Shown here: positions 2,510-23,914 of the stretch, piece after piece
How the letters are laid out: the number at the start of each line of letters is the position of its first letter
Numbering within the stretch: the stretch's first letter is position 1
Origin: Planctomycetota bacterium
GTDB lineage: Bacteria; Planctomycetota; UBA8742; UBA2392
Direction: 5' to 3'
Assembly (NCBI GenBank): GCA_027493625.1
Contig: JAOSKM010000001.1
Span: forward strand, 1,812,657 to 1,876,656
DNA: 64,000 nucleotides
Notes under the pieces: model-generated
Database searches by the model: none
Seen by the model: only the letters and a program-made list of their open reading frames with translations
What the model was told of the DNA's origin: nothing
Program-made: the position numbers and the translations under genes

Positions 2510-3016
2510 ATGCTGATCCGCCCCGAAACCAGCGACGACATCGCCGCCATCCACGCGGTGAATGCTGCGGCATTCGAGACTTCCGCCGAGGCCGAACTGG
2601 TGGATGGCCTTCGCGCGGCCAGGGTGTCGCCGTTCATCTCGCTGGTGGCCGAGACCGGCGGCCGTGTGGTCGGGCACATCCTGTTTACGCCGGTGCAGGT
2701 GGTCGGCGAGGGCACATGGGATGCACTGGCGCTGGCCCCCATGGCCGTGCTGCCCGAGTTCCAGCGCCGCGGCATCGGCTCGCAGCTTGTGCACGCCGGG
2801 CTGGAAGCTTGCCGCGCGGCCGGGCACGAGGTGGTGTTCGTACTGGGCCACCCGGAGTTCTACCCGCGCTTCGGCTTCCGCCGCATGAGCGAGTTCGGCA
2901 TCACCTGCGAGTTCAATGCGCCCGACGAAGTGCTGATGGTGCTGGAGCTGACGCCCGGCGCGATCGTCGGCCGCCGGGGCGAGGTGCGCTACCACCCGCT
3001 GTTCCAAGGCGTATAG
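2510..3016 (+). CDS. GNAT family N-acetyltransferase
   Basis: 168 aa. The acetyl-CoA pocket pattern VLPEFQRRGIGSQLV and the overall layout match YhbS-like GNATs. Confidence 0.8.
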   Translation: MLIRPETSDDIAAIHAVNAAAFETSAEAELVDGLRAARVSPFISLVAETGGRVVGHILFTPVQVVGEGTWDALALAPMAVLPEFQRRGIGSQLVHAGLEACRAAGHEVVFVLGHPEFYPRFGFRRMSEFGITCEFNAPDEVLMVLELTPGAIVGRRGEVRYHPLFQGV

Positions 3017-3137
3017 CCCATTCCAAAGGGTTGCTTCGTTTCCCATCGCGGCCGCTGATTGCGCGGCATAGGCTTATGTCGGGGACCGGCAATAGGGCCG
3101 GGAACCGGCAGGAGAGGCGAAACTCGAGGAGGCAACC

Positions 3138-3287
3138 ATGTACCGGCTGATCTGGTTGGCGGCGTTCTTTGCGATCTGTGCCGTCTACTTTGTCGAGGGC
3201 CTGTGGGTACTGGGTGTCGTCCTGCACTGCCTGCTGTTCTTCGCCTGGCTGGTGGTCGCGCCCGGTGAAAGCCGCAGGAAGGAGTAG
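3138..3287 (+). CDS. 49-aa hydrophobic small protein (two predicted TM helices), not in the ORF track
   Basis: ATG 3138 is preceded by GGAGG with a 5-nt spacer (gaggaggcaaccATG). Sequence MYRLIWLAAFFAICAVYFVEGLWVLGVVLHCLLFFAWLVVAPGESRRKE, TAG at 3285-3287. Confidence 0.35.
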   Translation: MYRLIWLAAFFAICAVYFVEGLWVLGVVLHCLLFFAWLVVAPGESRRKE

Positions 3288-3389
3288 CCCCGCCCCGCGC
3301 CCGCGCACATGGAAAGCCTCGTCCGTGGGCGGCCGCAGTTCTGCCGGCTTTCAGCTCCGGGCGTTTCATGGTGAATTCTGGCCGGTACT

Positions 3390-6201
3390 CTACTGGCTGG
3401 GTTGTTCCCAGGACAGGAAGGCTGCCTGGGGAGACAACGCGTGGGCCGGCGGCTCGTCCAGCAGGATTACGCGGGCCTCCCCCTCGGGCTCGAGGCCCGC
3501 GGCGTGCGCGGCCTGCAGCAGGGCCGGCGCGTGGCGCGTGCCGTCGCGCAGCTTGAGCGCCCCCGACAGCAGGAACACCCAGCGCGCGGCGCCAACCTCC
3601 AGCTTGTCGCCCGCGTGCAGCGTGACGGTCTGCTTGCCGCGGGCCCAGTCCGTGCGCTGGGCGTGAGCCAGGTGCTGCCAGGCCGCGTCGCCGCGCAGCA
3701 GGTTGTCGAGCACGTGGCGGGCCCAGGCGTCCTCGACCTGATTGCGCAACTCGGGTGATTCCTCCATCAGCTTGCGCACGTCGGGGAAGCGCAGGCGCAG
3801 GGCGGTCAGTGTGGTGGCGGCGCGCACGCTGGCGCTGCGCGGCTCGCCGGTCAGCAGGGCCATTTCGCCCAGCACCTCGCCGCCGCCGATGATGTCCAGC
3901 AGGCGCTCCTGTTCACCTTCGCCCTTCACCACGTGGGCGGCGCCGCGCGCGATGATGAACATGGCGTCGCCAGGCTCGCCCCTCGTGCAGCAGCAATTCA
4001 TCCTTGGCGAACACCGCCTCTTCGGCGGCGTCGGCCAGCAGCTTCAGCAGCTTCGGGTCGAGCGACTGGAACAGCGGGATGCCGCGCAGCAGCTCGGCGG
4101 CCGAGGGCAGCTCCGCGCGCGTCGGCGACATGGCGAGCTCGGCCATGCGGCGCTGGATGATCTCCAGGAAGTCGTCCGCGACGGCCGCCGGCACCAGGCC
4201 CTCTTTCTCGAACTGCTCCAGGGCGCCGCGCTCGAGGTTCAGCTCCACGCGCTTGCCCAGCCGCTTCTCGATGGCGCTGGCGACCTCGGGCGCGTTGGCG
4301 CGCAGGTCTTCCAGCGACTGCTGCGCCTCGCGGCGGAAGCGCTGGTAGGCCGCGGTCACCTTCCGCACCGGCTCGGACTCGCGTTCCGGGCTCTGCTCCA
4401 GGCTGTGCAGCACGCGGGCCGCCGCCACGGACTCGGCCCATGCCAGCTCGTAGAGGCGCGAGATGCCGAGGAACGCCAGGCGGCCGCTGACAAAGGGCAG
4501 CTTGCGCAACAGGCGCAGCAGGCGGTTGCGCGCGCGCAGCAGGCGGCCGGTGCGGCTGTCGGGCGCGGCGGTGTCGCCGGCCGCCAGGCGCTCGAGCTGC
4601 GACTCCAGCTCAAAGGCCAGGATCTGCTGGGTGGGGCCGCTGATCAGGCCGGTCTGGTTGGATTCGTCGTAGGCCGAGCGCTCGACGGCGATGGCCTGGT
4701 ACCAGGCCAGTTGCGCCAGCTCGGCGGGGTCTTCGCGGCGCAGCTCGTTGCGCGACTCGCGCAGGTGCTCCTCGACCACGCGGCGGCGCTCGCGCATGGA
4801 GGCGCGGATTTCGTCCCAGTGGATGGTGCGGTAGCGCGTGCGAGCCGCCAGCCGCTCGATGTCGGCCTCCACCTGCTGCAGCACGCGCGACTGCGCCAGC
4901 AGCCGCAGCAGCCTCTCACCGGGCGGGCGCTTGCCGAAACCCAGCTTGCGCAGCAGCAGGCCCGTGGTGGTGCCGTTCACCAGGATGGTCAGCAGCACCA
5001 CGCCCGCGGTCACGCGCAGCATCTGGCCGCGCACATCCGGCGGCAGTTTGTCGTCGGCCGCCACCAGCAGCACCAGCGCCAGTGATACCGCGCCGCGCAG
5101 GCCGCCCCAGGCGATCACCGTCGCCTGGCGAGCTGTCACTTTCGGGCCCAGCAGGCTCATCACGGGCTGGAACAGGAACACGGCGGCAAAGCGGATCAGC
5201 ATGATGCCCGCCCAGGCCGCCAGGGTGACCAGTACGCCCAGCAGCGTGAAGTGCTCGAACTGGCCGGCGATCACCATGCCGGCCAGGAAGAAGATCAGCG
5301 TGTTGGCGACGTGCGCCATCATGCCGAGGAACTGGTGGGCGCGGTGGCGCACCTCGGGGCTGATCGCGGTGTGGCCCGGGCCGCTCATCCACAGGCCCAC
5401 GGTCACCACGGCGATCACGCCCGAGACGTGCAGCGAGGCCTCGCCCAGGATCATGGCCGCGTAGCCCATCACCACGATCAGCGTGATTTCGACCTTGGGC
5501 TCGTCGAAGATGCGGCTCAGCAGCCACGACAGCGCCAGCGCGATCACCAGCCCCAGGCCGATGCCGCCGGCCAGCACCTTGACGAAACTGCCCAGGGCGG
5601 GCGCCAGCTGGAAGTCGCCGCCGGCGGCAATGCCGATCAGCAGCGTGAAGGCCACGATGGCCGTGGCGTCGTTGAGCAGCGACTCGCCCTCGATCAGCAG
5701 CGCCAGCCGCTTGGGCGCGCCGACGTCGCGCAGCAGGGCCACCACGGCGACCGGGTCCGTGGCGCTGATCAGCGCGCCGAACACCAGCGCGACCGGCAGC
5801 GACCACTGCCAGCCCAGGCCCGTCACGCCCAGCATCAGCGCGGCGGTGGCAAGCAGGCAGGCCAGCATGGCGGGAATCGCCAGGGTGGCGATCGGCCCGA
5901 TGTTGCGCCCGAACTTGTAGGTGTCGAGCGACAGGGCGGACTCGAACACCAGGGTGGGCACGAACACGAAAAGCACCAGGTCGGTGTTGAGCGCGGCGCC
6001 GGAGGCCATGGATTGCAGGCCGTGGGGCAGCAGCTCGTGGCGGCGCAGCAGCAGCAGCAGGGCGCCGACGCCAAGTCCCAGCACCAGCATGGCGACGGAA
6101 TAGGGGAACTTGTAGCGCCTGGCGGCCAGCTTCACGCCCGCGCCGACGGCCAGCACGAAGCAGGCCACCAGCACGATGGTCAGTTCAGGCCCGTGTTCCA
6201 T
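3390..6201 (-). CDS. NhaP-type (CPA1) Na+/H+ exchanger fused to C-terminal cyclic-nucleotide-binding domain(s), split by a 1-nt frameshift
   Basis: A multi-TM N-terminus carries ATDPVAV...ESLLNDA, followed by a long helical linker and then a cNMP beta-barrel (GEVLGEMALLTGEPRSASV). ORFs 3913-6201 and 3390-4001 join (..LLLHEG|EPGDAMFII..) if the C4 run at 3979-3982 is one base shorter. Confidence 0.8.
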
Positions 6202-6454: not shown

Positions 6455-7293
6455 TAATACACGTAGAAGAATTCCTCCACCGTGTGCTCCATGGGCGGCT
6501 CGATCTGCTGCCAGCCGGAGTCGATCTTCAGCAGCGTCATCAACTGCTCATAGTGCAGGCGGTCGCGGAAGGTGATCTTCTCCGAGACCACGCCGGTGGG
6601 CACGTCGCTGGCCCACAGCTCCAGGTCCTTGAAATCAAAGCCCTTGGCGCGCAGCCAGGCATGGAACTGGTGCAGCTTGTCGAAGGTGCTGTGGGTCGCG
6701 CCGCAGCCGCAGTTGTGGCGGCGCAGCAGCACGTAGGCCGCGGCGTGCAACTCGTTGCGCCGCTCGCCCTCGTGCACTTCCATGGTGCTGGCGCGGCTGG
6801 GCGCCTTGGGCGGGTGGCTGTTCAGGTCCACGGGCACGATCTCAAGCAGCCCTTTCGGCCCCATCTCGAGGCTCTTCACCTTGCCGTCGGCGTAAATGTC
6901 GATACGCCCCGCCGGGTTGGGCACAAAGGGCGGCACGAAGCCCAGCAGCACCGAGTGATAGGTGCCGTCCTGGGCGCTGCTCAGTACCCGGTGCTCGATG
7001 GCCTTGGCCGCGCCGTACACCTCGAGGTAGCTGCGCACCACCGGCGGCGGGTCGCAGATCACGAACTGGCGGTTGTACTTCTCGGCCACCTTGATCAGGT
7101 CCAGCAGCGTGGCGACGGCCGCGGAGTCGATCTGTTCAACCTGGTGCAGGTGCAGGATGCGGTGCCCGTCGATCTCGAACAGCTTGCGCTGCCTGATGTA
7201 CTGCTGCAGGCGGGGCACCAGCACGTTGTCAACGCGGGCGGGCAGCGTGGTGACGACGGCGCGGAAATCGCGCGGGATGGTGATTTCGGCCAT
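6454..7293 (-). CDS. STAS (anti-sigma antagonist-like) domain protein with uncharacterised C-terminal domain
   Basis: AGGAG precedes ATG 7293. The N-terminal ~110 aa have a STAS-like pattern (LDLIKVAEKYNRQFVICDPPPVVRSYLEVYG). I do not recognise the C-terminal ~130 aa (HNCGCGATH...FFYVY). Confidence 0.55.
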   Translation of the reverse strand: MAEITIPRDFRAVVTTLPARVDNVLVPRLQQYIRQRKLFEIDGHRILHLHQVEQIDSAAVATLLDLIKVAEKYNRQFVICDPPPVVRSYLEVYGAAKAIEHRVLSSAQDGTYHSVLLGFVPPFVPNPAGRIDIYADGKVKSLEMGPKGLLEIVPVDLNSHPPKAPSRASTMEVHEGERRNELHAAAYVLLRRHNCGCGATHSTFDKLHQFHAWLRAKGFDFKDLELWASDVPTGVVSEKITFRDRLHYEQLMTLLKIDSGWQQIEPPMEHTVEEFFYVY

Positions 7294-19317: not shown

Positions 19318-20446
19318 TTACGCCTTCACGCCCATCTTGGCTCCGCAGTTAACGCAGAACTTGGCGTCGGGCAGGTTTTCGTGGCCGCACTCGCCGCACT
19401 TGGGCTTGGTACCCATCTTGAAGCCGCAATCGGGGCAGAACTTGGCGTCGGCCTTGATGCTCACGCCGCAGCTGGGGCAGCGCTTTTCCACCAGCATGGC
19501 CTCACCGCAGTGGGTGCAGAAGCGCGCGCCCTTCTCGTTGGCGCCCTGGCACTTCGGGCAGGCGATGTAGTCGTCGGCCTTTTTGCCCTGCTGCTGCAAC
19601 TGCGCCGCCTGCTGCTGGTTGAGCTGGTTGAACATCATGCCCGGCATCATCATGCCCATCATCATGCCTGCGCTGTTGCCCGTGCCCGGGTTCTTGGCCA
19701 TGTCGCGCATGGCGTCGGCCATCTGGAACTGGGCGTACTTGCTGGCGTCGCCCAAGGCACCCATCTCGGCGCGCTTGTCTACGGCCTTCTGGACGCTTTC
19801 CGGCAGGTTGAAGTTATTGATGAAAAAACTCTTCGAGCGCGATGCCGAACTTCGCCATGCTCGCGTTGAGGTGCGGCTTCATGGCCTCGGCGAACTCTTT
19901 GTAATGGCCGGGCAGGTCGAGGATCGACTTCATGTTGGTGCCGAGCCAGTCGTTGACGTGGCTGACGATCAGGTCACGAAGATAATCCTCAATCTCGTCG
20001 GTTCTAAAACTGTCGTCCTGGCCCACGAGGTTGTTGATGAACACCAGGGGCTCGGTCACGCGGATGGCAAAGCGCCCGAAGCCGCGCACGCGCACCAGGC
20101 CGAAGTCGGTGTCGCGCAGGGTGATGGGCTCCTTGGTGCCCCACTTCAGGTCGGCGAAGATCTTCGTGTTCACGAAGTACACTTCGGTCCGGATCGGCGA
20201 CTTGAAGCCCCATGGCAGGCTCAGCAGCTTGGTGATCACCGGAATGTTGGCCGTGGTGATGGTGTGGCGCCCCGGCGGGAAGATGTCGGCCGCCTTGCCG
20301 CCGCAGCAGAAGATGGCGACCTGGTTCTCGCGCACGATGCACTGCCCGCCCAGCTTGAACTCGGCGCTGCCGCGCTCAGGGATGCGGTGGCTGATCTCGT
20401 CCGCGCGTGTTTCCTGGTACTCGATGATCTCAAGGAAGATGCCCAT
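19318..20446 (-). CDS. SPFH/band-7-like protein with C-terminal multi zinc-ribbon tail (COG4260-type), split by a 1-nt frameshift
   Basis: ORFs 19814-20446 and 19318-19764 join (..ALEEFF|INNFNLPESVQKAVDKRAEMGALGD..) if the A6 run at 19823-19828 is A5. The tail has four CxxC pairs. Confidence 0.75.
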
Positions 20447-20677
20447 GTTCGCTCCGCTGCAGGTTTCTGGTTACCGGTTTCGGGGCAGTGCCCCTGAATC
20501 CCGGCCGGAATAGTAGCACCTGTGCACGTTGCCGTGCATTCCAAACCCGCGTGCAGTGTGTAAGCCCGCTTGGCCGCTTCTGACACACCGCTGCATCGGA
20601 ATCGCGACGAATACAGTTGCTTTTTTTTGTGATGGGGTACACTTCTTGTCCCCGCGCATCAACGCTGGAGCCTTCAG

Positions 20678-21619
20678 ATGCCGATCGGAGTGAACGCAAT
20701 CCGGCTTGCCGACGATGTTCGCGAACGCGACCTCATCGAAACCCGCCCGTTCAAGATTCAGCACTTCGACATCCTGCCGTTCCGGGAAGTCGTCGGCGGG
20801 CGCGACCTGTACACGCGCACCAACGAGTTCGTGGACTTCGGCGTCAACCTCGACAACTGCGCCAAGATCGAGGAGCAGACACCGCTGCCGGACACGGAGG
20901 TTCGCTACGAGTTCGTGCTGCTCGGCACCATGTTCCGCGTCTGCTACACGGCGCAGGACCGCTTCCGCGTGCCGAACAACATCGTGCAGATCGTCAAGCG
21001 CCTCGCCACGCGACGCCTGCGCTACAAGTTCTCGCGCATCATGGACACCGGCGACGGCGCGTTTCCGTCACTGGAATCGCTGGCAGGAACGGTGATTCCC
21101 GTCGGGGCGGCGCTGACGCTGACCAACCTTGACGACGCTTGGCTCAGTGTCCACGAAAACGACGGCCACGCCAACGCCATCTTCTGCTACAGCGACGGCC
21201 TCAAAGCAATCTGGGAGGCGCACTACTCGCGTAGCATCAACCCGACTTACGAGCCGGAACACTTCCCTGATCCGATTGAAGGCATGAGGGCCAGCCTGCG
21301 CCCGTGCCTGCACGGCGTGCGCATTTACGTGAACGATTTGATCGAGTCCCGTCCGCAACCCGACGGCACGTTCCTCACCAACATCTACTTTGCACTGGTG
21401 GGCGACTCCGGCCGCAACGAAGGCCGCGGCTTGACGGCCATCATCCCGCCGATGCAGGACGGAGACATGTTCACGTTTCGGATGACGCCGGTGGTGACGG
21501 ACACCGTATCGCTTTCGACAATCAACGTAGACGCGATGTGGCCGGTAGGCCTGTCCATCGGCAGCCCCAGCGCCCTGAGCATGTTGAAGGACGTGCTGGT
21601 AACCCCACTCGGAGCATAG
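20678..21619 (+). CDS. candidate HK97-fold shell protein (phage major capsid / family-2 encapsulin-like), 313 aa
   Basis: GGAG lies 8 nt upstream of the ATG. The C-terminal pattern TNIYFALVGDSGRNEGRGL...MWPVGLSIGSPSALSMLKDV and the N-terminal FREVVGGRDLYTRTNEF recall HK97-type capsid and SrpI-like shells. This is motif recall only. Confidence 0.4.
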   Translation: MPIGVNAIRLADDVRERDLIETRPFKIQHFDILPFREVVGGRDLYTRTNEFVDFGVNLDNCAKIEEQTPLPDTEVRYEFVLLGTMFRVCYTAQDRFRVPNNIVQIVKRLATRRLRYKFSRIMDTGDGAFPSLESLAGTVIPVGAALTLTNLDDAWLSVHENDGHANAIFCYSDGLKAIWEAHYSRSINPTYEPEHFPDPIEGMRASLRPCLHGVRIYVNDLIESRPQPDGTFLTNIYFALVGDSGRNEGRGLTAIIPPMQDGDMFTFRMTPVVTDTVSLSTINVDAMWPVGLSIGSPSALSMLKDVLVTPLGA

Positions 21620-21622
21620 ACT

Positions 21623-22426
21623 ATGGCGAACGAAGAGGGCTGCCCAAGCTGTGGCGACCACACCTTTCCGCGATCCATGCACCTGAGGGCAGGCGACGCG
21701 GAAGCCATGCGCAGCATGCTTGAATCCGTGGAGGTCCGGCCATACAACCCGAAAGCGCCTCCAGCCGCCACTGACATGGAATTGCTGTTCGACGAGGGAC
21801 TCGATGCGCATGTCGGCGAGGCATTTGCACCCACCGAATATATTTTGCCGGAACACGGACGAGTCCAGTCCCTACGCGAAATCCAGGAAACGGGACCACG
21901 GCCGCAGGCTGCGTACTTCATGGTCGACAACCCATCAGTCGAAGGCAACAGCGTAGGCGGTAAAGTGACAGGCCAAGGCATTGATCCCGAAACCTTCATG
22001 TACCAAGATGCAACATCGGCGGCACTCTGGCTATTGCTGGCGGACGATGATCCCAACGAAGACTACGAAGAGAGGTTGAGGAAATGGCGGTTGGCGCAGA
22101 GACTCGGACTGGAGGGCATCTTGTTCCCGGGAGGGAAACCAAAGCGCCGAAAGAGACCATTGCCACCCTCTCCTACACCAACACTACCCAAACCCAAAGT
22201 CGTTGTGGACACGTCAGTACGCGATTGTATCGACAAGTGTCGGAACGACTTCGCCAAGGCGAATGAGCAATTCGGTAAAGATCTGGCTGCATGTGATCGG
22301 TTTTTGCCGGACAAGGCTCGTTTCACGGCATGTGCGGCTCTCGCTCTTCAAACTTGGATCAGCGCTCACGCGAAGTACCTTGCTTGTCGGGATGAGTGCT
22401 ACAAGATTCCATGGAAACGAAAGTAA
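21623..22426 (+). CDS. hypothetical bipartite protein: acidic N-terminal region, Pro/Lys linker, Cys-rich helical C-terminal domain
   Basis: GGAG lies 8 nt upstream, and the gap to the previous stop is 3 nt. It contains LLLADDDPNEDYEERL, then GGKPKRRKRPLPPSPTPTLPKPK, then 6 Cys in the last ~65 aa. Confidence 0.5.
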   Translation: MANEEGCPSCGDHTFPRSMHLRAGDAEAMRSMLESVEVRPYNPKAPPAATDMELLFDEGLDAHVGEAFAPTEYILPEHGRVQSLREIQETGPRPQAAYFMVDNPSVEGNSVGGKVTGQGIDPETFMYQDATSAALWLLLADDDPNEDYEERLRKWRLAQRLGLEGILFPGGKPKRRKRPLPPSPTPTLPKPKVVVDTSVRDCIDKCRNDFAKANEQFGKDLAACDRFLPDKARFTACAALALQTWISAHAKYLACRDECYKIPWKRK

Positions 22427-23914
22427 ATGGTGCCAACGCAGCCGGCAGAATATTTACGACTGATGCTGCCGCTTTTCATGGCAGTATTGCTTGCCTGTTG
22501 CACATGCCCGCCGAGTGTTGATCATGAATCAGTGCCCGCTTCCGAGTCGGTGACGTACGCATATCTGCTCTACAATCGAGGGACATGTTTCGGGTGGCGC
22601 ACTGAGAGCGTCAATTATGAGAGTGTGTCAGGCCAAGTGTTGCTAAATACGAGAATTGAAACGGTCGTCAAGACGCAAGATGTATTTTATCGCGGTAGTA
22701 CGATAGACCACTCAGTCATGAACATTACGCAGACTAGTGCAGGCCGTTTCGTTCGGATCAATCAAGCCGTTGATAACGGACACCAAAATCGACGTACTGA
22801 AATCGTGTGGCGTGGCGAAACGGTAACCATGTCCCGCTACCTCGATGGGTCCGTCGCTTCTGTTGATGAATTGCCGAGAGAGGTTTTGCCAGACGCCGAG
22901 ATATGGCCTTTGGTACTTCATGCAGTTGGTAAACATCCTCTAGTCACTTCAATTACACGCAGCATTTCTAGAAGCCCCGTTCCACCTCTACCATTGCCTA
23001 ACGCTGAGTGGCTCTCAGTTCGACTCAATGGAATTGAAATCACTTGCGCAGCGAATGACGCCGGTACGGCTGTTTTCGCATGGTTTCCTGACGGAACTAC
23101 TGCTCGACTTGTACCTCAAATACCAGCCGAGTTTGAGCCAACTGTGCTGCACAGGAACGGGATTGTCCCTGTGGATCGCACCATACAGCAGCCAGAGGAC
23201 CTGCTTAGGCTTACAATAGTAGTTCCCGAAACACCTCAAGTAAGAAAAGTGGCTGGTGGTTTTGAGGAATGTGGGCGCGAGTACCAAGATGTACACATTT
23301 CGGTGCAAGGAGTTGTCATCACACTTAAGGCGGGCTTCGGCACGACATTCGACATGGAGGTACCGTTCCCGCTGCCTGCTATCCCCGAAACGATTAGCGG
23401 CTACTTGGGTCCCTCCTTGCTGTGCGAGTCCGATGACCCTGCAATAGTCGAGACGGCTCAGATGTTGGTTGCGACGCATACTTCTGCCGCCGAGAGTGCC
23501 AAGGCGCTGGGTGAGTTTGTGTATCAGTACTTGGCAGATGATTCTGCAAGCGTTACGAATGCCAGTGCAAGGTATGCGTTACGCAATGGGCGTGGCGATT
23601 GTACAGCCCATGCTCATCTGGTTATTGCGTTGGCACGCGCCGCAGGTATTCCCGCGAGGCTTGCGGGCGGACTGCTTTACGACTCCACCGAAGAATTCGG
23701 CGCAATCTTCGCATTTCACTCGTGGGCGGAACTGTGGCTCGGAAAATGGACGCCGGTTGATGCGACATTTGGTCCGCGCGACTTCCCGGCCCGCTATCTT
23801 CTCCTTGATTACGGCCACGACTCCAGCGATCTTGGTGACGGTATTCTACGCGCTCATGCGTGGGTGTGGTCGTCCTTAGGCGCCAAAGTGTTGGATTACG
23901 AGTATCGCAGGTAG
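22427..23914 (+). CDS. lipoprotein with C-terminal transglutaminase-like cysteine protease core
   Basis: The ATG abuts the previous TAA. The lipobox is LLAC/C. The Cys-His-Asp core reads GRGDCTAHAHL...FHSWAELW...PVDATF. It has the lowest GC in the window. Confidence 0.7.
   Translation: MVPTQPAEYLRLMLPLFMAVLLACCTCPPSVDHESVPASESVTYAYLLYNRGTCFGWRTESVNYESVSGQVLLNTRIETVVKTQDVFYRGSTIDHSVMNITQTSAGRFVRINQAVDNGHQNRRTEIVWRGETVTMSRYLDGSVASVDELPREVLPDAEIWPLVLHAVGKHPLVTSITRSISRSPVPPLPLPNAEWLSVRLNGIEITCAANDAGTAVFAWFPDGTTARLVPQIPAEFEPTVLHRNGIVPVDRTIQQPEDLLRLTIVVPETPQVRKVAGGFEECGREYQDVHISVQGVVITLKAGFGTTFDMEVPFPLPAIPETISGYLGPSLLCESDDPAIVETAQMLVATHTSAAESAKALGEFVYQYLADDSASVTNASARYALRNGRGDCTAHAHLVIALARAAGIPARLAGGLLYDSTEEFGAIFAFHSWAELWLGKWTPVDATFGPRDFPARYLLLDYGHDSSDLGDGILRAHAWVWSSLGAKVLDYEYRR

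Follow-up and report, generated by a model that had tools for sequence, protein, structure and literature searches.

Shell gene and its predicted fold

The 64,000-nucleotide stretch of a Planctomycetota bacterium genome analysed here (GenBank assembly GCA_027493625.1, contig JAOSKM010000001.1, positions 1,812,657 to 1,876,656 of the forward strand; hereafter the window, to which positions refer unless another locus is named) contains three consecutive genes on the + strand. The first, at 20678-21619, encodes a protein of 313 amino acids (aa) which an earlier note, made from the letters without database searches, had taken for a shell protein of the HK97-capsid or Family 2 encapsulin type. It is followed at 21623-22426 by a gene for a 267 aa protein, which we term the partner and regard as a candidate cargo, and at 22427-23914 by a lipoprotein-type gene of 495 aa. 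The first gene was assigned to an HK97-fold shell protein on the basis of its open reading frame and translation, its family, an AlphaFold2 model, Foldseek and profile matches.

The shell reading frame, as translated from the window, is intact and runs from an ATG start to a TAG stop. Its GC contents at codon positions 1, 2 and 3 (0.60, 0.42 and 0.84) are coding-type and resemble those of neighbouring genes, and a Shine-Dalgarno-like GGAG, read from the sequence, lies 7 nucleotides (nt) before the ATG (20667-20670, +). The 231-nt divergent intergenic region upstream showed no sigma-70-like promoter. It does contain a terminator-like element on the + strand (20604-20630), a short hairpin with eight T residues after it, yet no + strand gene precedes this element. 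An identical protein is present in the public record MCZ7606142.1, from a Planctomycetota metagenome-assembled genome (MAG), where it is labelled merely 'hypothetical protein'; a relative of 82% identity likewise comes from a Planctomycetota MAG.

AlphaFold2 with 8 close homologues alone gave a predicted local distance difference test score (pLDDT) of 36.6, and the model built from an alignment of 51 full-length family members, 13 of them distant (alignment A2), was used instead, with a pLDDT of 91.1 and a predicted template modelling score (pTM) of 0.85. In this model an N-helix (residues 4-11) is followed by an extended chain, hairpin strands, a long strand (73-89), a 23-residue spine helix (102-124), a mixed helix/sheet region and long C-terminal strands; the full HK97 set of N-arm, E-loop, spine helix, A-domain and P-domain is predicted at high confidence. 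The protein carries neither a cyclic nucleotide monophosphate (cNMP)-binding insertion nor any other extra domain, and its short N-helix on an extended N-arm is a Family 2A-like feature. Such an arrangement has been described for Family 2, unlike the long N-helix of Family 1 (PMC8346489).

Foldseek searches of the PDB with this model returned 359 matches at E <= 1e-3, and the 50 listed are all encapsulin shells or capsids of phages, gene transfer agents (GTAs) or satellites. The best seven are Family 2 encapsulin shells (8t6r, 8wol, 6x8m, 9bje, 9bix, 8won and 9bhu; E 7e-18 to 2e-13), headed by 8t6r (E 7e-18, template modelling (TM) scores 0.77/0.80), and HK97, GTA, Staphylococcus aureus pathogenicity island (SaPI) and dozens of phage capsids rank next at about 1e-11. 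Against BFVD, the 50 best matches are capsid proteins where named, the best at 1e-13. Structure-based identity to the Family 2A shells is 15-18%, in alignments of about 320 columns with assembled shells. Since the AlphaFold2 model is confident and its Foldseek matches are encapsulins and capsids, the HK97 fold of the shell protein is established at the level of prediction. The fold expected by the earlier note was recovered, with Family 2 encapsulins as the best PDB matches, and not an unrelated one.

Sequence relatives of the shell protein

Single-sequence searches with the shell protein (Pfam, NCBIfam, PHROGs, PADLOC and phmmer against PDB) gave no usable match, and a word-indexed search of 5.8 billion clusters found merely 7-8 relatives, even with a deep profile. 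An exhaustive hidden Markov model (HMM) search of 1.84 billion representatives recovered 103 clusters at E <= 1e-3, of which 31 reached E <= 1e-30; most of the clusters are of 300-345 aa, and in A2 conservation spans the whole length of the shell. The family has been overlooked by all curated libraries and is 'hypothetical' in public records; no description of it, or of encapsulins with polymorphic cargo, was found in open-access papers and preprints. One member, P0034 (504 aa), has an internal insertion and a C-terminal extension of ~150 residues lacking a Pfam match, perhaps a domain for display or decoration that is fused to the shell.

The sequence of the window shell by itself has no Pfam or PDB match, but the family profile matches Family 2 shells significantly. 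Compared with PDB sequences, the A2 profile aligned near full length with Mmp1 of Mycobacterium (9e-15), SrpI of Synechococcus elongatus (9e-12) and the Family 2A shell of Acinetobacter baumannii (4e-11), and it matched three Family 2B shells at about 1e-10 to 1e-9. These alignments bear out the motifs which the earlier note had pointed out. The four segments it had quoted are present at residues 30-51, 69-96, 234-256 and 282-306 (nt 20765-20830, 20882-20965, 21377-21445 and 21521-21595), and its C-terminal pattern is reproduced: the profile segment '..tnIyfmvlGd....GltgIvP..' aligns with SrpI 'TKILLLRVGES..QGVVGLYQP' and '..WPVGlalgs.gAlsilqnv' with SrpI LYCSLAVLTDDALAVLDNV, with matching Mmp1 segments in both cases. 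Because the motifs fall inside a near full-length alignment (E 9e-15 to 9e-12), their resemblance is far above chance. The length of the protein also suits Family 2A as had been claimed, the solved Family 2A chains being of 310-316 aa.

The 13 most distant members of A2 sit nearer the capsid protein of Stenotrophomonas phage Sonora, and core-only HMMs were for this reason rebuilt without them. With a core-only profile the Sonora capsid protein scored 4e-23 and SrpI 8e-8, the Family 2 matches persisting at about 1e-7. Our first reading of the A2 matches, that Family 2 is the nearest sequence relative, was revised, as the core-only HMMs still prefer Sonora. In tblastn searches the annotated major capsid protein of Sonora was matched at 26.5% identity and 83% coverage. 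The Pfam model PF19307 (SrpI-like) gave no match with the window shell at E <= 1, and 3 of the 51 relatives matched it weakly (best 1.3e-5). Of the Pfam models, SU10_MCP is matched by the Sonora protein above threshold, and Phage_capsid and SrpI-like are matched below it. This weak match to the SrpI-like model places the new family, Sonora-type capsids and Family 2 in one HK97-fold neighbourhood. The Pfam clan of HK97-fold capsids and shells takes in Phage_capsid, SU10_MCP, SrpI-like and Linocin_M18.

Since PF19307 does not match the window shell and the Sonora capsid scores higher than SrpI and Mmp1, the protein, judged from its sequence, falls outside the present definition of Family 2A and is a relative of Family 2. 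On the same grounds we assign it to a distinct family in the neighbourhood of SU10-type capsids and Family 2 encapsulins. Among solved structures the Family 2A shells come closest to it, and among characterised sequences a phage capsid protein does. Thus the part of the earlier note that pointed to Family 2 shells stands as far as the closest structures and profile matches go, and membership of Family 2A does not, as PF19307 gives no match and no known cargo class is adjacent. The cargo classes of Family 2 (cysteine desulfurase, terpene cyclase, polyprenyl transferase and xylulose kinase) were absent from the operon and its surroundings among the window genes scanned.

Compared with known systems, the window shell is like those of Family 2A (SrpI of S. 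elongatus, 6x8m; Mmp1 of Mycobacterium, 8wol; A. baumannii, 8t6r) in its HK97 fold (E 7e-18 to 2e-16, TM up to 0.77/0.80), its length of ~310 aa, the absence of an inserted domain, the short N-helix with an extended N-arm and the non-phage context. A candidate cargo gene with conserved motifs in a hydrophilic N-terminal region is adjacent, and this region is comparable to the N-terminal targeting domains that Family 2 cargos bear (PMC8346489, PMC12746231). It differs from Family 2A in its identity of 15-18%, in being invisible to PF19307 and in a partner that lies outside the known cargo classes. The two-component encapsulins of Family 2B (Streptomyces lydicus, 9bje/9bix) also match in structure and profile, and some clades of the new family have two shell genes in tandem, just as many Family 2B operons carry two shell paralogues (PMC8346489); the window system, unlike Family 2B, has neither a cNMP-binding insertion nor terpenoid genes.

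Genomic context of the shell genes

Encapsulins are generally defined by shells that close into icosahedra by themselves, by a dedicated cargo with a targeting peptide or domain whose gene lies beside that of the shell, and by a non-viral context (PMC8346489); the last of these is what was found in the window and in the loci whose contigs reach past the shell operon. Neither in the window nor in loci with 10-kb flanks is there a portal, terminase, protease, scaffold, tail or integrase gene in the vicinity of the shell gene. In the window the neighbours encode SPFH, zinc-ribbon, MlaD-like, class I/II aminotransferase, radical-SAM, NrdR, DNA methylase and Ser/Thr kinase-WD40 proteins, the aminotransferase gene lying 3.5 kb away on the opposite strand. 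In related loci (designated L with a number) the neighbours vary and are again cellular: S8 peptidases, an extracytoplasmic function (ECF) sigma factor, McrBC, an Mrp antiporter and aconitase. The flanking genes thus change between loci and the shell-partner pair is retained. Pattern scans of IMG/VR recovered no member, either with the window-containing alignments A1 and A3 or with a distant sub-clade (A5). Tandem shell paralogues are present at three metagenomic loci, L031 (298-1423), L032 (550-2555) and L033 (172-1844); the contigs of P0008, P0012, P0025, P0060 and P0091 are short and informative for tandem shell paralogues alone.

The closest characterised sequence relative, the SU10_MCP-type (PF17236) capsid protein of Sonora (Mesyanzhinovviridae), differs in exactly this respect. 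It is encoded in a canonical phage head module (small and large terminase, portal, minor capsid, scaffold-like, capsid, and then lysis and tail genes), of which nothing is seen beside the window gene or its relatives.

The partner gene

The partner gene (21623-22426, +) starts 3 nt after the shell stop codon, and a GGAG lies within the shell 3' end, 8 nt before the partner ATG (21611-21614, +, as read from the sequence). The short gap and the internal GGAG suggest translational coupling of the two genes. The product has a conserved module at its N-terminus, then a hydrophilic linker, and at its C-terminus a Cys-rich domain that is strain-specific. It had no match in Pfam, NCBIfam, PHROG, PADLOC or PDB, and among 5.8 billion clusters an identical copy alone was found.

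Alignment with the counterparts at other loci revealed two conserved motifs. The first, CPSCGDHTFPRSMHL (residues 7-21; 21641-21685, +), is part of a module of the form M-A-x-E-E-x-C-x-x-C-x-D-H-T-F-P-x-x-M-H-L, extending to about residue 45, which is common to the counterparts at L024, L005 (two copies), L009 and L026. The second, VEGNSVG (residues 106-112; 21938-21958, +), is kept as VEG(N/D)S(V/S)G in the window, L024, both L005 copies and L009, at a variable spacing from the first, and is not recognisable in L026. Similarity to the L024, L005 and L009 partners is confined to the N-terminal ~110-150 residues, and the C-terminal 150-300 residues are unrelated. In the comparison with L024, the shells are 95% identical and the partners are alike at residues ~4-136 alone, with 30% identity. 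At the DNA level, homology of the window to L024 (85% at the nt level), L005 and L009 stops at about 21744-21753, that is, at partner codon ~42.

At 14 loci, with shells down to ~20% identity, the product of the first downstream gene has a Cys pair, C-x(1,2)-C, among its ~35 N-terminal residues, numbered from the probable start Met, against 2 of 46 other window genes. Distant shells (17-40% identity) also precede Cys-pair products, with CPGC at L019, CVFC at L022 and CLSC-x-N-H at L023. The type of N-terminal module tracks the shell clade, a co-variation that is expected if the module contacts the shell, as we infer.

The shell itself has two cysteines, C61 (20858-20860) and C89 (20942-20944), which co-vary among the 51 family members: 16 have both, 34 neither and 1 a single one. 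This pattern suggests a disulfide or metal site joining the tip region of the E-loop to the strand that precedes the spine helix. A four-Cys tether between this pair and the partner CxxC was considered and dropped, because Cys-motif partners also follow shells without the pair (P0009, P0010 and P0057).

Other proteins found downstream of distant shells were also recorded. Small proteins of 58-110 aa lie directly after the shells at L017 (10982-11158), L020 (2382-2576), L013 (6005-6202), L014 (9028-9249) and L001 (10964-11296); they bear a 'CGCGGK'-type motif at the N-terminus and, at the C-terminus, a conserved '..G-x-G-R-V-(I/L)-G' or '..FRVL' motif, which is reminiscent of the C-terminal targeting peptides of encapsulins. 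Each precedes a large Pro/Gly-rich protein beginning 'MP.GA.C'. The large downstream proteins at L013 (6254-9085) and L014 (12196-13434) contain a repeated 'A-V-A-R-F-D-G-x-x-G-x-x-I-Q-N-S-x-L-x-V-x-D' without a Pfam match, which we take to resemble repeats of some phage fibre-like proteins. At L010 (8592-11186) the very distant shell P0057 (~20% identity) is followed by an 864-aa partner with two CGCSG copies at its start; this protein matches phospholipase A2 weakly and below threshold (E 0.007), and there are McrBC genes upstream.

The variable cassette

The ATG of the lipoprotein-type gene (22427-23914, +) directly abuts the partner stop codon. Its product has a lipobox in the N-terminal sequence ..LFMAVLLAC.. 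and a transglutaminase core (PF01841, 4.4e-20; PDB 3isr, 8e-4). At the equivalent position elsewhere, unrelated exported, membrane-anchored or lipoproteins are encoded, and the gene is probably the second gene of a variable cassette. Composition profiles show a low-GC island at 21800-23700, which covers the variable portion of the partner and the lipoprotein gene, with a GC content of 0.49-0.56 against ~0.61-0.66 in the flanks; GC at third codon positions (GC3) is 0.60 in the partner and 0.84 in the shell.

Duplications of the cassette were found at other loci. L005 has two consecutive pairs of partner and lipoprotein genes. L016 has three partner genes with unrelated C-termini, the second of which is preceded by a copy of the last ~104 codons of the shell gene (97% aa identity) and of the partner 5' end, with a shorter copy before the third. 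These tandem duplications (2846-3330, 5120-5608 and 6943-7210; 90% and 81-87% nt identity) look like orphan cassettes. No orphan copy of the shell 3' end or of the partner N-terminus was found within the window.

The partners therefore show the architecture of polymorphic toxins: a conserved N-terminus, C-termini that are unrelated between close relatives, and tandem cassettes. Such an architecture is typical of recombination-driven polymorphic loci (PMC3482391). The resemblance to polymorphic toxins and to MuF proteins further includes a conserved N-terminal 'trafficking' module, a variable next gene and upstream remnants in the tandem cassettes (PMC3482391, PMC12226406). Unlike those systems, the Planctomycetota loci contain no recognised toxin or immunity domain, the conserved upstream element is a separate gene with a capsid fold, and there is no phage; models for toxin, immunity and defence (PADLOC) proteins gave no match with the Planctomycetota partners and cassette proteins. 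A polymorphic C-terminal domain, encoded in a swappable low-GC cassette together with a gene for an exported protein, also sets the partner apart from the encapsulins in the papers searched.

Homologues on Bacillus thuringiensis plasmids

A family member of 286 aa (31% identity at E 6e-29; family HMM score 298 bits) occurs on fifteen B. thuringiensis plasmids, pBtoxis among them. In the three plasmids inspected the shell homologue, annotated only as hypothetical, is followed by a gene for an AbiEii-family nucleotidyltransferase and then by one for a PIN-HAD (PIN_12-HAD) protein. The AbiEii-family protein (PF08843, 3.7e-19; PADLOC AbiEii, 8e-11) has an N-terminal extension of 46 residues. It is the only interpretable partner of the family, and belongs to a toxin/abortive-infection family. 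The locus on pBtoxis (L027, NC_010076.1, 11953-15238) adjoins genes for a resolvase and a Tn3 transposase; L029 and L030, likewise from toxin plasmids, also have the family member followed by the AbiEii-family and PIN_12-HAD genes. On pYGD98 the shell homologue genes adjoin a resolvase gene, and on pMC189 the three-gene order is repeated, flanked by insertion sequence (IS) transposases, with the partner annotated merely 'hypothetical'.

The position of the AbiEii-family gene right after the shell homologue recalls the AbiE systems (AbiEi/AbiEii), which are of the type IV toxin-antitoxin/abortive infection kind. They differ in that the upstream gene here encodes an HK97-fold protein and not the AbiEi regulator, and that the window locus has no AbiEii.

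Discussion

Based on these results, we consider it probable that the window encodes a member of a new family of encapsulin-like, self-assembling HK97-fold shells which recruits the product of the adjacent gene through a conserved N-terminal module and so carries a polymorphic payload. The product of 20678-21619 would assemble by itself into an icosahedral, encapsulin-like, non-viral protein shell, as the completeness of its predicted fold suggests, and the product of 21623-22426 would be bound or enclosed by it. Recognition would take place through the N-terminal module of the partner, with its CxxC-DHTFP..MHL motif, hydrophilic linker and VEGNSVG, and this module may thus load the payload, whatever activity the latter might have. 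The C-terminal sequence of the partner and the following exported or lipoprotein gene would form a cassette swapped by recombination, so that one shell type could serve many different payloads.

Several observations weigh against this explanation. The core-only HMMs, built from 38, 25 and 7 sequences, give the Sonora capsid 85, 75 and 48 bits, and SrpI/Mmp1 ~35, ~20 and ~2 bits, the last not significant. There is no universal tag, since the N-terminal Cys motif is absent in L016 and Bacillus, and the small Cys-motif proteins of 58-110 aa could be accessory proteins of the shell and not cargo. No recognisable enzyme domain was found in the partners, except for the AbiEii nucleotidyltransferase of the Bacillus plasmids. 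The survey of genomic context covers ~20 loci, many of them on short metagenomic contigs. Finally, the shell genes at L009 (10001-10942) and L005 (3766-4708) are broken into several frames, which could be due to assembly error or to pseudogenisation and decay.

It is possible, though we think it less likely, that the loci are conflict systems in which the partners are toxins or effectors and the exported proteins and lipoproteins are immunity or accessory factors. Such a reading bears on the function and leaves the fold as it is. The shell would then either sequester the toxin, serving as a structural antitoxin or as a trigger of abortive infection, or package the toxin in order to deliver it. 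This would fit the order of a conserved partner N-terminus, an unrelated C-terminus and then a small variable exported protein, the location of the cassette in a low-GC island, and the tandem, orphan-like cassettes of L016 and L005, which keep a piece of the upstream conserved gene. The B. thuringiensis shell homologues, directly upstream of the AbiEii-family nucleotidyltransferase and the PIN-HAD protein, point in the same direction, and toxins of the MuF type carried in phage heads offer a precedent (PMC12226406). However, no Planctomycetota partner matches toxin, immunity or PADLOC models, and the C-terminal domain of the window partner was not found fused to another delivery domain in the cluster search. 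The candidate 'immunity' proteins are large (130-840 aa) and include a transglutaminase-like enzyme, and a cytoplasmic shell has no evident export route.

A broader and rather speculative form of this idea, to which we attach somewhat less weight still, is that a cellular HK97-fold shell is the common chassis of a polymorphic effector system, with toxin-like payloads tethered or enclosed via the N-terminal tag and each accompanied by its own exported immunity or accessory gene, the payload in Bacillus being AbiEii. If this were true, the shell would be either a cage which keeps the payload neutralised until it is triggered, for instance by phage infection, or a tail-less delivery particle, and it would be the first encapsulin-type compartment devoted to biological conflict rather than metabolism.

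That the gene encodes the major capsid protein of a defective prophage, phage satellite or GTA-like element appears unlikely to us. The ranking of the Sonora capsid above Family 2 encapsulins by the core-only HMMs would be in its favour, as would the tblastn matches to capsids of Sonora, Pseudomonas phage hairong-like and Acinetobacter phages (E 6e-4 to 6e-6) and the weak matches of some members to the Pfam models SU10_MCP and GP7. The best phage identity is 26-28%, though, and neither the window nor the loci with 10-kb flanks have head, packaging, tail or integrase genes near the shell, while the three IMG/VR pattern scans yielded no member. Further, the flanks differ between loci around a constant shell-partner pair, and the GC3 of the shell gene is host-like.

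We regard it as improbable that the family has kept the HK97 fold and lost the ability to form closed shells, perhaps binding or regulating the downstream protein in soluble form or serving as its antitoxin. The Bacillus homologue does occupy the usual position of the AbiEi antitoxin upstream of AbiEii, and the present analysis is one of genes and a predicted monomer fold. On the other hand, the HK97 elements are complete and of high confidence, with ~320 columns aligned with assembled shells, and both the tandem shell paralogues and the conservation over the full length fit a lattice-forming protein. Lastly, an ordinary Family 2A encapsulin with a cysteine desulfurase or other known cargo encoded elsewhere, which the closest solved structures, the matching length and the short N-helix with extended N-arm might bring to mind, is very hard to maintain in view of the lack of a PF19307 match at E <= 1, the structure-based identity of 15-18%, the scan of window genes, which yielded no class V aminotransferase, terpene cyclase, polyprenyl transferase or xylulose kinase, and a different conserved partner gene which fills the cargo position in the examined loci.

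Encapsulins are currently sorted into four families, each with few metabolic cargos. The encapsulin-like shell family proposed here lies between a genuine phage capsid lineage and the Family 2 encapsulins, and is therefore a useful intermediate for studying how capsids and encapsulins interconvert. The gene of its partner behaves like a polymorphic cassette, which raises the possibility that protein shells are a means of caging or delivering variable effectors. If the partner module does act as a short conserved tag by which many unrelated domains can be loaded, it would also be attractive for engineered cargo loading.

Neighbouring genes upstream of the shell

The SPFH and zinc-ribbon genes upstream of the shell gene were considered as parts of the system and excluded, because upstream genes are not constant between loci, where an ECF sigma factor, S8 peptidases or McrBC, among others, are encoded instead. 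Two separate open reading frames in the window (19318-20446, - strand) encode the SPFH/Band_7_1 protein (19814-20446) and the multi-zinc-ribbon protein (19318-19764). A frameshift, a genuine split or an error of sequencing could account for this separation; at L024, with its 95% identical shell, the SPFH and zinc-ribbon regions are contained in one protein of 375 aa.

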